From: Patescibacteria group bacterium
GTDB lineage: Bacteria; Patescibacteriota; Minisyncoccia; Phycocordibacterales; Phycocordibacteraceae
Length of the DNA stretch: 64,000 bases
Reading direction: 5' to 3'
Assembly (NCBI GenBank): GCA_019752595.1
Contig: JAIELV010000001.1
Coordinates: 312,486 to 376,485 of the forward strand
The translations under genes were made by a program, and so were the position numbers. The notes under the pieces were generated by a model that saw nothing but the letters and a program-made list of their open reading frames with translations, searched no databases and had not been told where the DNA came from. Positions 1,613 to 60,484 of the stretch are shown piece by piece (within the stretch, counting starts at the first letter, position 1; each line of letters starts with the position of its first letter).

Positions 1613-1873
1613 TTACTCGCCAGGCAAAGGAATTCGTTTATACGAACCCCAGGACTTCGTCCACGCGTCGGTTTTCCATCGGAAAATAAAATGGACCGCA
1701 ATTGCTACTACCGTAAGAACAAAGAGTAATGCTCCTGCTCCGCCCCAACCGCTGAAAAAATACGTGACGGCAAAAATTACCGCCAACACGAGATATTTTT
1801 TTACTCGAAACTTCGCTGATTGCGCGTGCACCGCAACATGCAATTCCCTCTTCCAAAATTCCTTGAAAGTCAT
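1613..1873 (-). CDS. Small 2-TM membrane protein
   Basis: Start at the internal M (MTFKEFWK). Two hydrophobic helices. Confidence 0.35.
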   Translation of the reverse strand: MTFKEFWKRELHVAVHAQSAKFRVKKYLVLAVIFAVTYFFSGWGGAGALLFVLTVVAIAVHFIFRWKTDAWTKSWGSYKRIPLPGE

Positions 1874-5558: not shown

Positions 5559-5736
5559 GTGCGTCAGTATACCTGTTGCCCGTTTGGTACCTGCCTACCG
5601 GCAGGCAGGCAGGCAGGCGAAGTTGGAACCTCAGGGTAAAGGGGGCTGACCCCATTTTCGGTCTTCTATACTTTGTATAATTCTGCGCTTGATTACCAAA
5701 TTTATTCTTATGCTGGTCTATTTTCATAAAGTGCTG

Positions 5737-5755
5737 GCTGGGGAGCAGGGATTCG
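5737..5755 (-). repeat. Direct duplicate of the 19-nt 3' end of tRNA-Gln (gctggggagcagggattcg)
   Basis: Identical 19-mer at 5737-5755 and 5915-5933; the latter is the tRNA T-loop/acceptor 3' half. Confidence 0.8.
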
Positions 5756-5915
5756 GTCACGAATCACTAAGTATTTTACTCCTAGTGCTCCTAAAATACT
5801 AAGTGTTCTCGACCCCGCCTCGCCTGCCTTTCGGCATGGCTCCGGCTTTCGAATCCTGACGGAAGCAAAACTATTTGCTTCCTCTCCCAGCAAAAAATCG
5901 CTCTACTATTTTTTG

Positions 5916-5986
5916 CTGGGGAGCAGGGATTCGAACCCCAATTAAAGGCTTCAAAGGCCTCTGTCCTACCATTAGACGACTCCCCA
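5916..5986 (-). tRNA. tRNA-Gln (anticodon UUG), no encoded CCA
   Basis: Read by eye: acceptor UGGGGAG/CUCCCCA, anticodon arm GAGGC-CUUUGAA-GCCUU, T-loop TTCGAAT, discriminator G. Confidence 0.8.
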
Positions 5987-6109: not shown

Positions 6110-7051
6110 TCAACCCACCTCTTCCTGGCTCAAAAGATATTTCAAGCCGCCTACAACCGCGGCTATCTGAGCATCAATGCAGACCTCAGGGCTAACCCTT
6201 GGACTATCGGGATACACCTCTGTGGTTGTGGTATATGCAGCGTTTGAAAAGCCTGCACACAGCTTGAGTTTCTTCACAGGATAGTTGACCACTCCTTCTT
6301 GCTCGAGTGCGGTTCCGATAAGATGGCCATGTTCATCAGGTTGAGCAATGTGAGTTACCTCGTTCACCGACTCTATGATAGCCCTCTGAAAATCTGCTTG
6401 CGGATTTTCAGAATCGCCGACAGCATAAAATCCATCGGGGATCTCCGACCACTCTTCGGCGACTCCATCTCGGTCGGCTTTTGCCGGTCGGAAAATGGTG
6501 TTGTCGGTATCGGTCGTTTCGTGAAGGTCAAAATGCGCGAAGGGCTGAACTTCTTTCATCGCATCCAAGAAAAGCCTGCACTCCTCCACCGGACTTTCCT
6601 CAGTAAACCAACGATTCGGGTCAAACGCACGTGAATTCCAACGGTTAACCGTCTCGTACGCCCATGGACTGATGCACGGCACGCACACAATATTAAACTT
6701 ATCTTCAAACTGTGCAGCTGCGCGTTCCATAAAACCGAGTGCGCCTTGGACACCACTGGTTTCATAACCATGCACACCACCTGTGATTAAAACCGTTTTT
6801 TTGTCAGGAGAAAAATTCGGAGATGTTAATGCATAGAGGGGGTAACGCTCCGGATCTTGAGAGAGTGCTCCGTATTGCTGAACGTGGAACCTCTCACCAA
6901 GTTCTTTAATCTTACTGACGACTTCCTCGTCATAAGAGCGTTTGATAATTTGCTCTTTGGACCAGCGGTCGACGTCTTCCTCTCGCCACTTCCAATCTTC
7001 CATTCCAGTCAAATTGGATGCGGTGGCTTCCTTGGAAAATTGTGTTGCCAT
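6110..7051 (-). CDS. Zn-dependent carboxypeptidase-like protein (M14 / succinylglutamate desuccinylase-aspartoacylase family)
   Basis: HGYETSG and FDLHE zinc-ligand motifs. Confidence 0.65.
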   Translation of the reverse strand: MATQFSKEATASNLTGMEDWKWREEDVDRWSKEQIIKRSYDEEVVSKIKELGERFHVQQYGALSQDPERYPLYALTSPNFSPDKKTVLITGGVHGYETSGVQGALGFMERAAAQFEDKFNIVCVPCISPWAYETVNRWNSRAFDPNRWFTEESPVEECRLFLDAMKEVQPFAHFDLHETTDTDNTIFRPAKADRDGVAEEWSEIPDGFYAVGDSENPQADFQRAIIESVNEVTHIAQPDEHGHLIGTALEQEGVVNYPVKKLKLCAGFSNAAYTTTTEVYPDSPRVSPEVCIDAQIAAVVGGLKYLLSQEEVG

Positions 7052-27833: not shown

Positions 27834-28739
27834 ATGCAGAAAATTATTGTCATTGTAGGTCCGACCGCGTCAGGAAAGACCGCGCTTTCTATAGAGCTCG
27901 CACGCGCACTTGGACGCCTGCCTGCCGGTAGGCAGGGCGAGGTTATTTCAGCTGATTCGCGACAGGTGTACCGAGGGCTTGATGTGGGAAGTGGCAAAGT
28001 GACAAAGAAGGAAATGCGAGGTGTCCCCCACCACCTCTTGGATGTCGCGAACCCGAAAAAAGTGTACAGCGCATCAGATTTTGTCCGTGACGGGCGGGCC
28101 GCGATTTCTGAAATCGCGGCCCGTGGAAAAATTCCGATTATCGCGGGCGGAACTGGTTTTTACATCGACGCACTTCTCGGCACTATCCCGCTCACTGACG
28201 TCCCACCAAACCCTGCCTTGCGAAAAAAACTTGCGAAGTACTCATTGAAACAGTTGCAAACGAGGTTGAAAAAAGTAGACCCAAAACGCTTTAAAACGAT
28301 AGATACGAATAACCCTGTCCGCCTCGTGCGTGCGATAGAGATAGCCGCCGCGCTTGGAAAAGTACCAACGACGACTGGCAAAAAAATATATGACGCTTTT
28401 TTTATAGGCATTGGCATTTCTCATGAAAAACTAAAGGAAAAAATCCGTATTCGTCTATTCGCACGAATAAGGGGTATAGAGAAGGAGGCAAAAAAACTGC
28501 ACACACAGGGATTAAGCTGGAAGCGCATGGAAGAATTGGGGCTTGAGTATCGATACATGGCGCGGTATCTGCAAAAGAAAATATCGCGTGATGAACTGAT
28601 GGTGGAACTTGAAAAAGGAATTGTGAAGTACGCAAAACGCCAAATGACGTGGTTCAAGCGGAATACAGGTATTGTGTGGCTCAAACCACAAGATACAAAG
28701 CGCGCAATTCGAATGTCCCGTCAATTTCTGAACACATAA
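27834..28739 (+). CDS. miaA: tRNA dimethylallyltransferase
   Basis: Start at MQKIIVIVGPTASGKT (P-loop). SADSRQVYRGLDVGSGK. Confidence 0.85.
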   Translation: MQKIIVIVGPTASGKTALSIELARALGRLPAGRQGEVISADSRQVYRGLDVGSGKVTKKEMRGVPHHLLDVANPKKVYSASDFVRDGRAAISEIAARGKIPIIAGGTGFYIDALLGTIPLTDVPPNPALRKKLAKYSLKQLQTRLKKVDPKRFKTIDTNNPVRLVRAIEIAAALGKVPTTTGKKIYDAFFIGIGISHEKLKEKIRIRLFARIRGIEKEAKKLHTQGLSWKRMEELGLEYRYMARYLQKKISRDELMVELEKGIVKYAKRQMTWFKRNTGIVWLKPQDTKRAIRMSRQFLNT

Positions 28740-28839: not shown

Positions 28840-28910
28840 GGGCGATTAGTTTAATGGTAGAACGGAGGTCTCCAAAACCTCTGGCGGGGGTTCGATTCCC
28901 TCATCGCCCG
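28840..28910 (+). tRNA. tRNA-Trp (anticodon CCA), no encoded CCA
   Basis: Acceptor GGGCGAU/AUCGCCC, anticodon arm GAGGU-CUCCAAA-ACCUC, discriminator G. Confidence 0.85.
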
Positions 28911-29040
28911 CAATGATTCATGAGCACAGCTGGGGGCTGTGTGAATGAAACATCATTGCGAGGATGATGCGGAATCGAAGCCCGGAGCGCTGGCGCGAGG
29001 GCGGGCTGTCTGATTTTTCAGCAGGAAAATACAGATAGCC

Positions 29041-29059
29041 GATTCCCTCATCGCCCGCA
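29041..29059 (+). repeat. Direct duplicate of the 19-nt 3' end of tRNA-Trp (gattccctcatcgcccgca)
   Basis: Identical to 28894-28912. 128-bp hairpin-rich spacer between the copies. Confidence 0.8.
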
Positions 29060-29069
29060 TTCGAGTTTT

Positions 29070-29095
29070 AAAAAAGCCCCTCTTCGGGGCTTTTT
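29070..29095. terminator. Bidirectional terminator hairpin gcccc-tcttc-ggggc with A/T runs
   Basis: Lies between tRNA-Trp (+) and rpmG (-). Confidence 0.55.
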
Positions 29096-29096
29096 G

Positions 29097-29252
29097 TTAT
29101 TTCTTCGTTTCTTTGAAGACTTCGCGTTTCCGAGTCTTCGGATTGTATTTCTTGAGAGAAAGTTTCGCATTCGCAAGCTTCTTCTTATTCTTTCTCGACC
29201 ACACAATATGGCCCGAGGCAGACTTCAGTTTTACGAGATTATCCTGTGACAT
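29097..29252 (-). CDS. rpmG: 50S ribosomal protein L33
   Basis: 51-aa ORF below the ORF-track cutoff: MSQDNLVKLKSASGHIVWSRKNKKKLANAKLSLKKYNPKTRKREVFKETKK. Aligns with the L33 consensus ([14 protein letters not shown]..KNKR...KLELKKFDP..R.HV.YKEAK). Confidence 0.8.
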   Translation of the reverse strand: MSQDNLVKLKSASGHIVWSRKNKKKLANAKLSLKKYNPKTRKREVFKETKK

Positions 29253-43903: not shown

Positions 43904-44316
43904 TTAGTTTATTATAGCTTGTTTCGGACTATAGAAAAAACTATACTTCAAACGAGGCCGACGACCGAAACGATGCTAAACCACAACATAAGGATTTTTA
44001 AATTCATAAATTCATCATATCAAAGCCACTTTTTGCACTCATTTTTTGCAATCACGCATGAATCTCTGCTGAGATTCTGCGCGACCCCGCCTCAGTCGCC
44101 TCCGCTCCTTCCGGCTTTCCGAAGCTCCATGCATTCTCTTCGGAACCCCCGCGAAAAAAGAAAGGATGGGCAGGGCGAGGAAGCGCCGAGCGACTTTGTT
44201 TTGTTATGAGCAAAGCGAATTAAAAAACAAGAAGTGCCCTTTGTGGTGCGGAGCGAGGCGCGAATGGGCTTCCTAACAATTTTGCTTGAAATAGGTTCGG
44301 ACTTTTTCGTAAAGAA

Positions 44317-44464
44317 GCACCACAGGAAGACTTCCAAAATTTCGGGCTTCGCCCGTAGTTTGTGTGTGGAGATAAGACCAAGGAGTTAAGGCATTTCCGC
44401 GCGCAAGGCGCGCGGTGAGGGTGAGGTTGGAGCCGAAGATTTTCTGGAGGGAGGATTTTTGCAC
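44317..44464 (-). repeat. Left copy of a 148-bp imperfect inverted repeat (partner 48463-48610); contains a truncated copy of the recombinase 3' tail
   Basis: Reverse complement aligns with 48463-48610 over the same length. The terminal ~41 nt and ~45 nt are near-identical and the middle has diverged. Confidence 0.75.
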
Positions 44465-47061: not shown

Positions 47062-48672
47062 TTGAGTCAAAAGCGGAGTTACAATATACCTATGTTGTAT
47101 TTCCTCTACGCCCGCAAAAGCACCGACAACGAAGACATGCAGGTGTTATCCATCGAGGCACAACTTTCAGAGTTGCGCTCACTCGCCAAAAAGGAAGGAC
47201 TAGAAATTGCTGCCGAATTCATAGAAAAACAATCCGCCAAAATGCCCGGGCGTCCACACTTCAACGAAATGATTGAACGTGTTCGCAAAGGCGAAGCAGA
47301 AGGAATCCTGTGTTGGAAATTAGATCGTCTTGCAAGGAATCCCGTTGATAGCGGGCAAGTGTCGTGGCTTTTGCAGAGTGAAATTTTGAAACACATCCGC
47401 ACACCAGAACGCTCCTATTTTTCAGAAGATAGCGTTTTGCTTATGTCTGTTGAATTCGGCATGGCAAACCAGTACATTCGTGATTTGGCATACAACACCA
47501 AGCGTGGACTAAGAGAAAAAGCACGTCGTGGTGAGTTTCCAAGCGTTGCGCCTCTTGGGTATCAAAATAATCCGCGAACGAAAAGAATTTATGTTGATAA
47601 AAAGAAATCACTTCTCATTCGGAAAGCGTTTGAGTTGTATGCCGAAGGCAACAAACGATTAGAAGATATTTCACAATTCCTTTTTGAGAACGGCATCAAA
47701 ACCAAGGCGCAAAAACATTGGGGCAAGAGCGCGGGCGGAAAGCGCCTTGCCAAAGACGGGGCTAAGAAAATCCTCACCACAACCTTTTACTACGGCGATT
47801 TCTACTATTCCGGCGAGTGGTACAAGGGTACGCACACACCGATAATCACGAAACAGCTTTTTGACCAAGTGCAAAAAGTCATTGAGGCGCGCGGACATGT
47901 GCGCAAGAGCGCAAAGAACGACCCGCAAGCATTGTGTGGGTTACTGCGTTGCGGTTCGTGCGGCTGTTCCATAACCGCCGAAGTCATAACCAAGAAAAAG
48001 CAGAAGAATGGAATCGTACATCGGTACACCTATTACCGGTGTACGAAAAAGAGAGGTGCATGCGCCGAACCATACATCCGTGAGGAAGAACTGACGGCTC
48101 AACTTTCTCTAACACTTTCCAGTTTTGCTTTGCCCGAAAAATGGGCAAAGGAGATGTTTGCCTTGGCTGAAAAAGACGAGAGGGATTCGGGCATTTCCGC
48201 GACGGGCGCCCTGCAGGGACTGCGCGACCGAATTAGCGACATAGATTCCAAACTCGCCCGCCTTACCGACCTCTATGTTGAACAGGATATTGAGCGCGAT
48301 GCATACCTTGAACGCAAACGCTCTCTGATGTCGGAAAGGCGGTCATTGGACGAGCAAATCGTGCGTTTAGAGAAGGACGCGACAGCGTGGCTCCAACCAC
48401 TCCGTATGTGGATAAAAGACGCTGAAAACCTTAACCAAATTGCAAAATCCACGGACAAAGCCGTGCAAAAATCCTCCCTCCAAAAAATCTTCGGCTCCAA
48501 CCTGCATCTTTCCGCGCGCGAAGTTTCAGGAAATGCCTTAATGCCTTGGTCATATCTGCACGGGGGAACAGCGGGCGAAGCCCGAAATTTTGGAAGTCTT
48601 CCTGTGGTGCGCCGGGTTGGATTCGAACCAACGGAGACCGAAGTCAGCAGATTTACAGTCTGCCCTCGTTGA
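47062..48672 (+). CDS. Large serine recombinase (resolvase/invertase catalytic domain + recombinase domain + Zn ribbon + coiled coil); true 3' end uncertain
   Basis: YARKSTDNEDMQ...SIEAQ serine-nucleophile motif and LDRLAR. CGLLRCGSCGC...YYRCTKKRGAC zinc ribbon. The open frame runs into tRNA-Tyr. Confidence 0.85.
   Translation: MSQKRSYNIPMLYFLYARKSTDNEDMQVLSIEAQLSELRSLAKKEGLEIAAEFIEKQSAKMPGRPHFNEMIERVRKGEAEGILCWKLDRLARNPVDSGQVSWLLQSEILKHIRTPERSYFSEDSVLLMSVEFGMANQYIRDLAYNTKRGLREKARRGEFPSVAPLGYQNNPRTKRIYVDKKKSLLIRKAFELYAEGNKRLEDISQFLFENGIKTKAQKHWGKSAGGKRLAKDGAKKILTTTFYYGDFYYSGEWYKGTHTPIITKQLFDQVQKVIEARGHVRKSAKNDPQALCGLLRCGSCGCSITAEVITKKKQKNGIVHRYTYYRCTKKRGACAEPYIREEELTAQLSLTLSSFALPEKWAKEMFALAEKDERDSGISATGALQGLRDRISDIDSKLARLTDLYVEQDIERDAYLERKRSLMSERRSLDEQIVRLEKDATAWLQPLRMWIKDAENLNQIAKSTDKAVQKSSLQKIFGSNLHLSAREVSGNALMPWSYLHGGTAGEARNFGSLPVVRRVGFEPTETEVSRFTVCPR
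48463..48610 (+). repeat. Right copy of the 148-bp inverted repeat; its last 6 nt are the 3' terminus of tRNA-Tyr
   Basis: Alignment with 44317-44464 as above. The repeat ends ...cttcctgtggtgc, and tggtgc is the reverse complement of tRNA-Tyr ...GCACCA. Confidence 0.75.
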
Positions 48673-59973: not shown

Positions 59974-60046
59974 CCGCCCTTAGCTCAGTTGGTAGAGCAG
60001 CTCCCTCTTAAGGAGACGGTCGTAGGTTCGAATCCTACAGGGCGGA
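59974..60046 (+). tRNA. tRNA-Lys (anticodon CUU), no encoded CCA
   Basis: Acceptor CCGCCCU/AGGGCGG, anticodon loop CUCUUAA, T-arm GTAGG-TTCGAAT-CCTAC. Confidence 0.8.
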
Positions 60047-60484
60047 CTCGCGAAGCGAGTCCTGTAAAGAGAGCGCTGGTGGGCGCATCCTTACCCTGAA
60101 AGCCTGCCCGGTGCGCGTAGCGCCAGGCTTACAGGGCGGACTGAAGCGTAGCGTAAGGACGCCCTAGCAAGTTCGGGGAACTTGCGTGTAGGATTCGAAG
60201 ACCTTGTGAGCATTTTTTCAGAGCATGCGAATGAAAAAATCCACAAGGTGTACTGCTCCCGTAGGGAGAGAATCCTTCCCTATGTACAGGGCGGACCATG
60301 ACAAAAACGCCTCCCATGCGGGAGGTTTTTTGCTTGGTCCGCGGGCGCAGGTATATTTTTGTTTACCGAAGGTAAGGCAAAAATACCGAGCCGGGGATCG
60401 CGGAAAATCTCCGTCAGGAGATTTATCCGTGTCCGGACCGCGACGAGAGCTGTGACGACGGAGGTCCTGCCTACAGAGCGGACT
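60036..60484 (+). repeat. Four direct copies of the tRNA-Lys 3' segment TACAG(G/A)GCGGAC(U): 60036-60048 (in the tRNA), 60130-60142, 60285-60297, 60472-60484 (one mismatch), separated by hairpin-rich spacers that include a degenerate T-arm copy
   Basis: Read directly. gtaggattcgaagacc at ~60189 mimics the tRNA-Lys T-arm gtaggttcgaatcctac. Confidence 0.7.
60304..60331 (+). terminator. Hairpin cctccc-atgc-gggagg followed by T6 (intrinsic terminator-like)
   Basis: Lies within the tRNA-Lys to tRNA-Leu spacer. Confidence 0.5.

Follow-up and report, generated by a model that had tools for sequence, protein, structure and literature searches.

Positions 5737–5914 of the 64,000-nucleotide (nt) stretch analysed here (a Patescibacteria group bacterium, contig JAIELV010000001.1, positions 312,486 to 376,485; hereafter the window) lie behind a glutamine transfer RNA (tRNA) gene. 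Judged from its sequence and that of its relatives, this interval is one complete copy of a gene-less structured element found behind tRNA and transfer-messenger RNA (tmRNA) genes, and not the scar of an integrated island. The element belongs to a large conserved family that is unmatched in Rfam and in the literature searched, and whose architecture is unlike that of any family tested. Its copies, which we call units, sit directly 3′ of a tRNA or tmRNA gene in sense orientation, the whole element measuring 95–200 nt. Each is built in this order: a variable segment, an inverted copy of the end of the host gene (A′), a conserved core of two hairpins, the sequence GUGAC and a direct copy of the gene end (A). 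A′ is the reverse complement of host-gene positions 74 down to 54, and A repeats host positions 56–74, or 56–76 where CCA is encoded, so that the direct copy is 19 nt long without an encoded CCA and 21 nt long with it. The parts of the unit behind tRNA-Gln, with lengths of stems in base pairs (bp), are the following.

5916–5986, minus strand: tRNA-Gln(UUG) without encoded CCA, host gene of the element (ARAGORN; Rfam tRNA model, 61.6 bits)
5915–5933, minus strand: proximal copy, A-near, the last 19 nt of tRNA-Gln (repeat search)
5886–5920, minus strand: hairpin 1, CCCAGCAAAAAAU / AUUUUUUGCUGGG, 13 bp (fold and family comparison)
5884–5891, minus strand: acceptor half of A′ (GCUGGGAG), an inverted copy, one base short, of the tRNA acceptor 3′ strand with G73 and C (same place in the family)
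5861–5882, minus strand: accessory hairpin 2, 9 bp with a 4-nt loop, inside A′ at the acceptor/T-stem junction (fold and family)
5848–5858, minus strand: T-half of A′ (CAGGAUUCGAA), the inverted T-stem 3′ strand and T-loop, to U54
5814–5847, minus strand: core helix P2, AGCC-GGA-GCC A UGCC GAAA GGCA GGC-GA-GGC, then GGG
5756–5813, minus strand: helix P3 (hairpin 4), GUCGAGAAC ACUUAG...CUUAGU GAUUCGUGAC
5737–5755, minus strand: distal direct copy, A, of tRNA positions 56–74 (repeat search)
5737–5862, minus strand: match of the Gln unit to the covariance model described below, 73.1 bits, expect value (E) ~4e-20

A preliminary description of this locus had claimed a 19-mer direct repeat, and the repeat is real: GCTGGGGAGCAGGGATTCG occurs at 5737–5755 and 5915–5933 only, 178 nt apart from start to start, even when up to three mismatches are allowed, and found no match in 100 shuffles. 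In tRNA sense it consists of C56-G57-A58-A59-U60, the T-stem 3′ strand, the acceptor 3′ strand, G73 and one further C. The distal copy is followed by CA, which gives G73-CCA; the gene copy has no CCA. The hairpins reported between the copies were largely borne out. The 9-bp stem is perfect (5861–5869 / 5874–5882) and the third stem pairs at 13 of 14 positions (5765–5778 / 5792–5805), while the A6/T6 stem exists but measures 13 perfect bp (5886–5898 / 5908–5920) instead of the 12 first given. The "degenerate T-arm-like motif" is also present, and its identity is more specific than that name: it is an antisense copy of the T-loop and T-stem of tRNA-Gln itself (GGATTCGAA). This inverted copy of the tRNA end, which pairs with the direct copy, had been missed, as had the recurrence at tRNA-Trp and tRNA-Lys and the arrays, inversions and presence/absence differences reported below.

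The T-half of A′ (5848–5858) pairs with 5746–5755 to form helix P1. P2 has a GGA/GA internal loop and stems that covary among units, and P3 is closed by the family-wide GUCG../..GUGAC motif with its conserved G.U pair, the GUGAC abutting the distal copy. Hairpin 1 pairs the last 6 nt of the tRNA and an A-run with a U-run and the start of the inverted copy. It is the Gln counterpart of the terminator-like palindrome found at this place in other units; its U-run lies inside the 13-bp stem, and a terminator scan made no call there. The spacer folds far better than its shuffled versions, both in tRNA sense (z = −7.5) and on the opposite strand (z = −6.4). An identical locus occurs in a contig assembled independently from a different sequencing run (L007), so it is not an assembly artefact; exact-protein look-ups returned this identical strain only (L007, L008). 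The 159-nt interval between the 19-mer copies holds no plausible coding open reading frame (ORF), the overlapping ORFs of 70, 61 and 79 amino acids (aa) being judged spurious, and it is wholly covered by the conserved non-coding unit.

The regions behind each of the eight tRNA genes in the window were searched for copies of the respective gene, and three of them (Gln, Trp and Lys) carry units. The members other than the Gln unit are these.

28912–29058, plus strand: second intact member, behind tRNA-Trp (28840–28911); model match at 28965–29058, 76.4 bits
~28957–28983, 28975–29005 and 29040–29058, plus strand: A′, core and 19-nt direct copy of the Trp unit
60048–60483, plus strand: three decayed tandem units behind tRNA-Lys(CUU) (59974–60047)
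44035–44127, minus strand: degenerate orphan of the core, 35.2 bits, within 650 nt of intergenic sequence with no tRNA nearby and no P1, A′ or A

The Trp copy begins at the same T-loop base as the Gln copy, 128 nt downstream, and the antisense T-loop 9-mer stands at +60 for Trp and +59 for Gln. In the subtype to which the Trp unit belongs, P2 is short and P3 is of the UUUUUCAGCAGGAAAA type; a strong intrinsic terminator comes next (~29064–29100). In related contigs, tRNA-Trp bears units as well (L047, L076, L092, L116, L048, L106). Behind tRNA-Lys, the last 12 nt of the gene are repeated at +83 and +238: copies of UACAGGGCGGAC stand at 60130–60141 and 60285–60296, with a one-mismatch copy at ~60470–60483, and the model matches 60185–60287 (13.6 bits) and 60329–60452 (22.1 bits). 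This array also contains a terminator (~60300–60335), and the body of its middle unit, from the antisense T-arm to the copy, is a different one. As a separate observation, the final bases of tRNA-Tyr, together with ~140 nt of the trailer (44317–44464, plus strand), are repeated in inverted orientation 4 kb away (48463–48610, minus strand; 82% over 148 nt). The trailer holds an antisense-T-arm-like motif (GGUUGGAGCCGAAGA), and the repeat may belong, as a diverged form, with the units described here.

The same architecture stands behind tRNA-Arg in a metagenome-assembled genome of Candidatus Saccharibacteria (L001) that had been fetched for another purpose. One core, TCGAA-NN-CCGGAGC, a hairpin and GCGAGG(N)CGGG, is common to the spacers of Gln, Trp and Arg, and at least 120 stretches matched this pattern when a metagenome collection was searched. 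Among the matches listed, 89 of 128 lie 22–240 nt behind a tRNA gene on the same strand, 20 isotypes being represented, and in 46 units 16 nt or more of the tRNA end recur without mismatch 107–200 nt downstream. The boundary of the copy is sharp, since 39 of 43 non-redundant direct copies begin at C56 of the T-loop, after TT. A covariance model built from 34 units gave 128 hits in 100 loci, several per contig (five in 12 kb in L061). One hit lies behind a tmRNA gene (L073), and there A′ follows the local gene: the tmRNA T-loop reads TTCAATT and A′ reads AATTGAA. Similarly, a compensated change in the T-stem of one tRNA-Trp (L047) is mirrored in both A and A′.

This recurrence bears on the explanation first offered for the locus, that the repeat and spacer are the remnant of an excised or decayed integrative element. 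In its fullest form that reading takes the copies as an attL/attR-like scar of a large integrase-borne island, since decayed or deleted, with the accessory genes downstream as former cargo. The repeat itself speaks for it: a direct repeat of a tRNA 3′ end from the T-loop onwards is the classical footprint of integration, the match is 19 of 19 and the gene is left intact. In addition, two unrelated viral contigs carry a copy of the tRNA-Gln 3′ end beside an integrase-like gene, as read by eye. Tyrosine-integrase islands, prophages and the deletion derivatives of these that retain nothing but the att sites (CIMEs, cis-mobilizable elements) share with our units a direct repeat starting in the T-loop, with the gene intact at one end and a displaced fragment at the opposite end, the use of tmRNA genes and a tendency to pile up in tandem. 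The units differ from them in being 95–200 nt long and gene-less, with a covarying interior, an inverted copy of the target, arms matched to the local gene and no associated integrase. At the Gln locus the interior is not debris but a complete covarying unit (73 bits) of the kind common to more than 120 loci and recurrent behind many tRNAs, Trp and Lys included. It holds no ORF or integrase fragment. The suggestion that the DUF1801/YdeI/DUF1905/HAD genes are old cargo found no backing either: no third copy of the repeat bounds them, and nothing ties the cluster to it. We therefore regard the island scar as barely credible. The other option of the preliminary description, a tRNA fragment retained as a structured RNA, came close to the data, since the spacer covaries strongly across more than 120 loci; a spacer conserved under selection had been named there as favouring a dedicated RNA over an att scar.

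In the two viral contigs, which are high-GC phage sequences (L009, 2905–3400; L010, 570–1100), a tRNA-Gln(CUG)-like sequence with the same 19-mer lies upstream of a recombinase-like gene. We take this gene, by eye, to encode a tyrosine recombinase, and the arrangement to be a classical attP unrelated to the element.

Comparison of the units refines the fold. The segment after the gene is a terminator-like palindrome in 16 of 43 units, and 27 have none. A′ is commonly split at the acceptor/T-stem junction by the accessory hairpin, in which the flanks (AGC...GCGU) and the loop are conserved and the stems free; these stems are unrelated in sequence among many units and keep the same position, and two near-identical loci (L036 and L054) differ there by a compensatory change from G-C to A-T. 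The core reads RGCCGGAGC-hairpin-GCGAGGCGGG, followed by GUCGYGG-hairpin-CCYGUGAC. Written as helices, P2 is RGCC-GGA-GC[hairpin]GC-GA-GGC, GGG comes next, P3 is GUCGYGG...CCYGUGAC, and A adjoins without a spacer. Terminators are common after A.

RNAalifold folds the units into a T-shaped three-way junction in which A′ and A form P1 and the arms are P2 and P3, with compensatory changes in 16 of 27 pairs. Over the 128 model hits, 91.1% of cells are paired, as against 70.7% in shuffled alignments (a level reached by none of 500 shuffles) and 32–49% in slid controls, and 26 of the 27 pairs change on both sides; an alignment fitted to the model inflates such figures somewhat, and the slid controls and the independent RNAalifold result agree with them. 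One G.U pair in P3 is nearly invariant (106 of 122). Since G.U and U.G cells outnumber A.C and C.A cells (196 against 64), the folded strand appears to be that of the tRNA sense.

The reading we favour, to which we give about an even chance, is that the element is a co-transcribed structured RNA that hitch-hikes on tRNA genes. It is preferred because the fold is strand-specific and rich in G.U pairs and because the unit always lies in sense orientation directly behind a strongly transcribed gene, with terminators often found after A. The unit would be transcribed from the tRNA promoter, by read-through or within tRNA operons, and would be excised by the ordinary enzymes of tRNA end processing. 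Its product would persist as a stable RNA whose closing helix copies the acceptor/T helix of the tRNA. A would be kept identical to the gene so as to absorb A′, which otherwise could invade the 3′ third of the tRNA, the whole thus acting as a self-neutralised antisense. At the DNA level, the direct and inverted repeats of the element could explain, with no need of a transposase, how units multiply in tandem, are lost precisely, have their body inverted or decay, and gene conversion between units could account for near-identical bodies. One unit lies inside a tRNA operon of the order Cys-[unit]-Leu-Lys-Leu, with A stopping 1 nt before the next tRNA (L132); because of this position it must be co-transcribed and bracketed by tRNA-processing sites.

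Structured RNAs directly behind a tRNA have parallels in the leuZ 3′ external transcribed spacer of E. coli, the mascRNA of MALAT1, the tRNA-microRNA transcripts of murine gammaherpesvirus 68 (MHV68) and the tRNA-small nucleolar RNA genes of plants. With these the element would share expression from a tRNA promoter, release by activities of the RNase P/Z type and a helix mimicking the acceptor/T stack, a feature that is predicted for the element. They differ in having neither inverted nor direct copies of the host end and in not being a repeated family spread over many isotypes.

Several points weigh against a co-transcribed RNA. Transcription through the unit is itself what we infer from the sequence, and in 16 of 43 units a terminator-like hairpin separates A′ from the tRNA, so that most transcripts there may end before the unit. 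Without the nearly invariant pair the excess of G.U cells is modest, about 90 against 64 A.C, and folded single-stranded DNA also tolerates G.T pairs. An RNA role would not explain how near-identical bodies come to sit on different isotypes with matched A′ and A, nor the spread to 20 isotypes and at least two phyla, nor the invariant core. Finally, the sharp, universal boundary at C56 with GTGAC adjoining looks like a site-specific DNA junction.

These last points lead to a different view, namely that the units are non-autonomous site-specific mobile DNA elements recognised as a folded single strand, which we consider rather unlikely. Such an element would, on an equally doubtful footing, enter the T-loop of its target, a tRNA or tmRNA gene, at T55/C56 and supply a new 3′ end in place of the old one, which would be left as the distal copy; and a recombinase or nuclease encoded elsewhere would, with as little likelihood, act at the GTGAC/C56 junction. 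Besides the start of the repeat at C56 and the conservation of GTGAC at the distal junction, the choice of targets is in keeping with this proposal, tRNA and tmRNA genes being the classical target set of integrases.

The dynamics of the family count in favour of the hitch-hiking unit preferred above; its tandem arrays, its orphan and truncated copies and the contrasts among lineages also fit mobile DNA. Copy number varies, with one unit in L059 and at least two in its close relative L075. There are arrays that end in truncated units (L105, L123, L093), second units whose body is inverted between A′ and A (L054, L036), and internally deleted or orphan copies (L031, L050 and 44035–44127 in the window). 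The subset of tRNAs with a unit differs between relatives: a tRNA-Gln(UUG) beside the orthologous M14 peptidase gene has no unit in L011, and L078, which is 75% identical to the window in nucleotide sequence over a 2.7-kb gene, has units behind Leu(UAA), Lys(CUU) and Leu(UAG), whereas no unit was found behind the two Leu genes of the window. The body from TCGAA to GTGAC can be nearly identical on different isotypes in different data sets (0.96–0.99; 0.99 for L094 Val and L103 Ser, 0.96 for L014 Asn and L020 Arg), and in only 18 of 74 cases does the nearest-neighbour body have the same isotype. At least nine units have CA after the distal copy, so that CCA is encoded there, and lack it after the gene copy; chance would give about two such cases, and the reverse occurs in two. 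This fits a distal copy that was the original gene end. The order of gene with A, loop, A′, body and A is that predicted for hairpin single-strand integration, as derived from the CTX model, and the T-shaped three-way junction counts for it too.

Folded-strand sites such as integron attC, the CTX-phage attP(+), the ends of IS200/IS605 elements, palindrome-associated transposable elements (PATEs) and the T-shaped repeats of parvoviruses resemble the units in several ways. Stem structure is conserved over sequence, the fold is strand-specific, inverted target-like copies lie ~70–110 nt apart, the order is that of hairpin integration, and there is a T-shaped junction with a conserved site at the stem base. 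They differ in that the units have no GTTRRRY/RYYYAAC cores and no cargo, that their arms are re-matched in each host, and that no Xer, IntI, TnpA or Rep partner was found.

The re-matching of the arms speaks against mobile DNA. A′ and A always match the local gene, unusual T-loops included. On transposition a unit would bring along the arms of its former host and give rise to a chimeric, dead tRNA, and no young unit with mismatched arms was seen. No autonomous, gene-bearing version occurs among the ~150 hits, and no recombinase, HUH protein or reverse transcriptase is recurrent nearby. More generally, no protein family recurs within 4 kb of the units, the largest cluster, from eight loci, being what we take by eye to be a YraN-family housekeeping protein, and long versions carrying genes (distal copy more than 450 nt away) were not found, only truncated units (L022, L098). 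Strict and loose forms of the core pattern gave only chance hits in coding sequence among 2.9 million viral contigs, which thus contained no copies. To the left of C56 the sequences GGTT and GTGAC share no core, which conservative recombination requires. The GC-rich units of Elusimicrobiota have GC-rich stems, which indicates long residence there and adaptation to the guanine-plus-cytosine content of the host. The conserved G.U and the frequent G.U pairs suit RNA better. Also in favour of the RNA reading, the sequences that follow the two copies of the gene end are often homologous yet diverged while A stays identical at 19 of 19 positions (L001, L125, L122); A is therefore kept by selection or by gene conversion.

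If transcripts do pass through the unit, its repeats could also act in cis. On a third account, which we think improbable, the tRNA transcription unit contains an RNA switch of four segments: the 5′ strands of the tRNA, its 3′ third, A′ and A. Pairing of 1:2 and 3:4, with tRNA and module both folded, would alternate with pairing of 2:3, a giant hairpin that lengthens the terminator, although we give this scheme little credence. It could control termination, read-through into genes further downstream or the disposal of read-through or misfolded pre-tRNA, each an outcome we hold to be equally improbable. In many units that have a terminator (L025, L042, L125 and L072, for example), A-near with the left terminator arm and the right arm with A′ make up a single long palindrome. 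A′ can pair equally well with either copy, which would explain the identity of A to the tRNA, and the minimum-free-energy fold of the Gln unit divides A′ between both partners. The likeness to four-segment attenuators such as the trp leader lies in the exclusive pairings of 1:2/3:4 and 2:3 around a terminator; the element differs in having no leader peptide or ligand, in its large core unrelated to switching and in its place at the 3′ end of the transcription unit. A switch neither needs nor explains the conserved P2/P3 core with its invariant junction bases. In addition, 27 of 43 units lack the first terminator, the downstream genes are unrelated among loci, only a subset of tRNAs has a unit, with the subset varying between relatives, and tandem arrays would be senseless.

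The relation of the distal segment to the gene allows one more interpretation, a guide-RNA-like one, in which a scaffold presents a 3′ "guide" of 19–21 nt identical to the tRNA gene after 5′ GTT to a protein encoded elsewhere. We judge it very improbable. A scaffold of ~70–140 nt does end in a hairpin abutting a segment of 19–21 nt that corresponds to the non-template strand after GGTT, and locus-specific and conserved segments interleave. TnpB omega RNAs and Cas12 CRISPR RNAs are alike in this respect, with a hairpin-ended scaffold followed by a segment of ~20 nt identical to DNA beside a short T-rich motif; the element differs in that its segment is paired internally and in having no nuclease gene and no insertion sequence context. 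That pairing is with A′, within the same molecule, and the guide would be directed at an essential tRNA gene of its own cell. No tnpB, cas12 or iscB-like gene is recurrent nearby, and no Rfam family of the omega-RNA/HEARO type matched.

It is also conceivable, and we put this forward tentatively, that the units represent a new class of element or RNA, in which a catalytic or protein-binding core carries arms that are re-templated from the local tRNA or tmRNA gene (positions 54/56–74), a "programmable" hitch-hiker on the T-loop. With the same reserve, two versions may be imagined: an RNA that processes itself and spreads by way of an intermediate of RNA or single-stranded DNA, or a cell-encoded RNA that presents a tRNA 3′ fragment. 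If this were true, the mechanism of target copying would be one undescribed for any mobile element or non-coding RNA.

Known families gave no identity. Against Rfam 15 only the tRNA itself matched at the Gln locus, the best other models having E of at least 4, and nothing matched at 14 further loci; the literature searched held no description of the element. A tandem tRNA pseudogene was rejected, as identity ends sharply at C56, there is no similarity to the D- or anticodon arm, and inside the unit the T-loop is copied in antisense (AATCGAA for TTCGATT). Integron attC sites were set aside for want of RYYYAAC/GTTRRRY, and with ends that derive from the host tRNA (..GGAWTCGAA / GTGAC|CGAWTCC) and a distal junction without G|TT. 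A miniature inverted-repeat transposable element would have terminal inverted repeats of its own and a short target-site duplication of fixed length; here the inverted repeats copy the local target and differ at each locus, and the direct repeat, fixed at its left end, varies at its right end and spans 19–57 nt or more. For an IS200/IS605-type element, a PATE or an omega RNA, hairpins 2 and 4 would have to be related, which they are not, and there are no long versions, recurrent ORFs or Rfam matches.

Among ribozymes, no Rfam model matched at the Gln locus or the 14 further loci, and a matching core of the hammerhead or hepatitis delta virus-like type is absent; the three-way junction, whose base holds a conserved site, gives no more than a hint of a self-cleaving ribozyme. 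The splice-site flanks of a bulge-helix-bulge intron in the T-loop would be complementary, and those here are not. Serine-recombinase or IS110-type two-nucleotide cores were rejected because the junctions have no common core dinucleotide. A primer-binding site of the long-terminal-repeat type would be expected to leave the antisense copy alone, and simple target-primed retrotransposition would make A′ foreign at new sites.

As to hosts, L001 belongs to Candidatus Saccharibacteria, a protein next to the units of L061 has its best named relatives in Yanofskybacteria and Paceibacteria (that is, Parcubacteria), and the best named relatives of the alanyl-tRNA synthetase of L054 are in Elusimicrobiota. 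On these sequence relationships the family spans at least two phyla and includes Saccharibacteria, Parcubacteria and Elusimicrobiota. Positions 1–12169 of L061, which hold five units, contain a single ORF of at least 280 aa under genetic code 11 and ten tRNAs called by ARAGORN, two of them overlapping; the contig may use an alternative genetic code or represent a region unusually rich in RNA genes.

Some units depart from the usual setting. Five loci have no tRNA in front of the unit, which comes instead after the 3′ end of a large conserved sequence, at least 400 nt in length, that looks structured (L016, 1–218; L027, minus strand, upstream of the unit; L051, 2150–2660; L120; L049). Conserved strings in this sequence include ..CUAGACAUCUAGGCGC.CGUAGCCCUAGCGGAAA..GUCCGAGGCG.AUGCCGAGG.. 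and ..GAGCGUGCGA.UUAGUC.., and it was recognised neither by ARAGORN nor by Rfam with E up to 1. A 135-nt piece with a similar 3′ end lies between tRNA-Gln(CUG) and its unit in L112. A subfamily of ten loci (L020, L026, L030, L033, L038, L041, L091, L096, L108, L111) has an extra small hairpin inside the distal copy, inserted between CGA and UUCC of the T-loop part, and the exact repeat then begins with UUCC. In one of these, L033, an Rfam match to LOOT RNA (1662–1779, plus strand, 58.5 bits) lies ~500 nt from the unit.

In the window, an M14/AstE-like peptidase gene (6110–7051, minus strand) neighbours the tRNA-Gln locus. Its closest relatives are outside Patescibacteria, Bdellovibrio-like and from Vibrio/Photobacterium, at 57–70% identity. 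The gene moves, as judged by synteny, and the relatives L001, L011 and L012 do not have the same arrangement with tRNA-Gln. With such varied neighbourhoods in related Saccharibacteria, it looks horizontally acquired. A GGCA repeat lies at ~5601–5619; at its edge, a 21-nt palindromic sequence, CCTGCC..GGCAGG, occurs at 5590–5610 and again at 27916–27936.

If the account given here is right, a large conserved structured element stands unannotated behind a substantial share of the tRNA genes seen, and programs that call islands from duplicated tRNA 3′ ends will misread such loci as att scars. The family would provide a test case for how inverted and direct copies are kept matched to a changing host gene, for which concerted evolution, templated copying and selection on alternative pairing are candidate mechanisms. 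The invariant nucleotides of the junction and the conserved G.U would point to a specific partner or chemistry, be it a new ribozyme, a processing signal or a recombination substrate. A conserved non-coding element of this kind would be notable in organisms with very small genomes.

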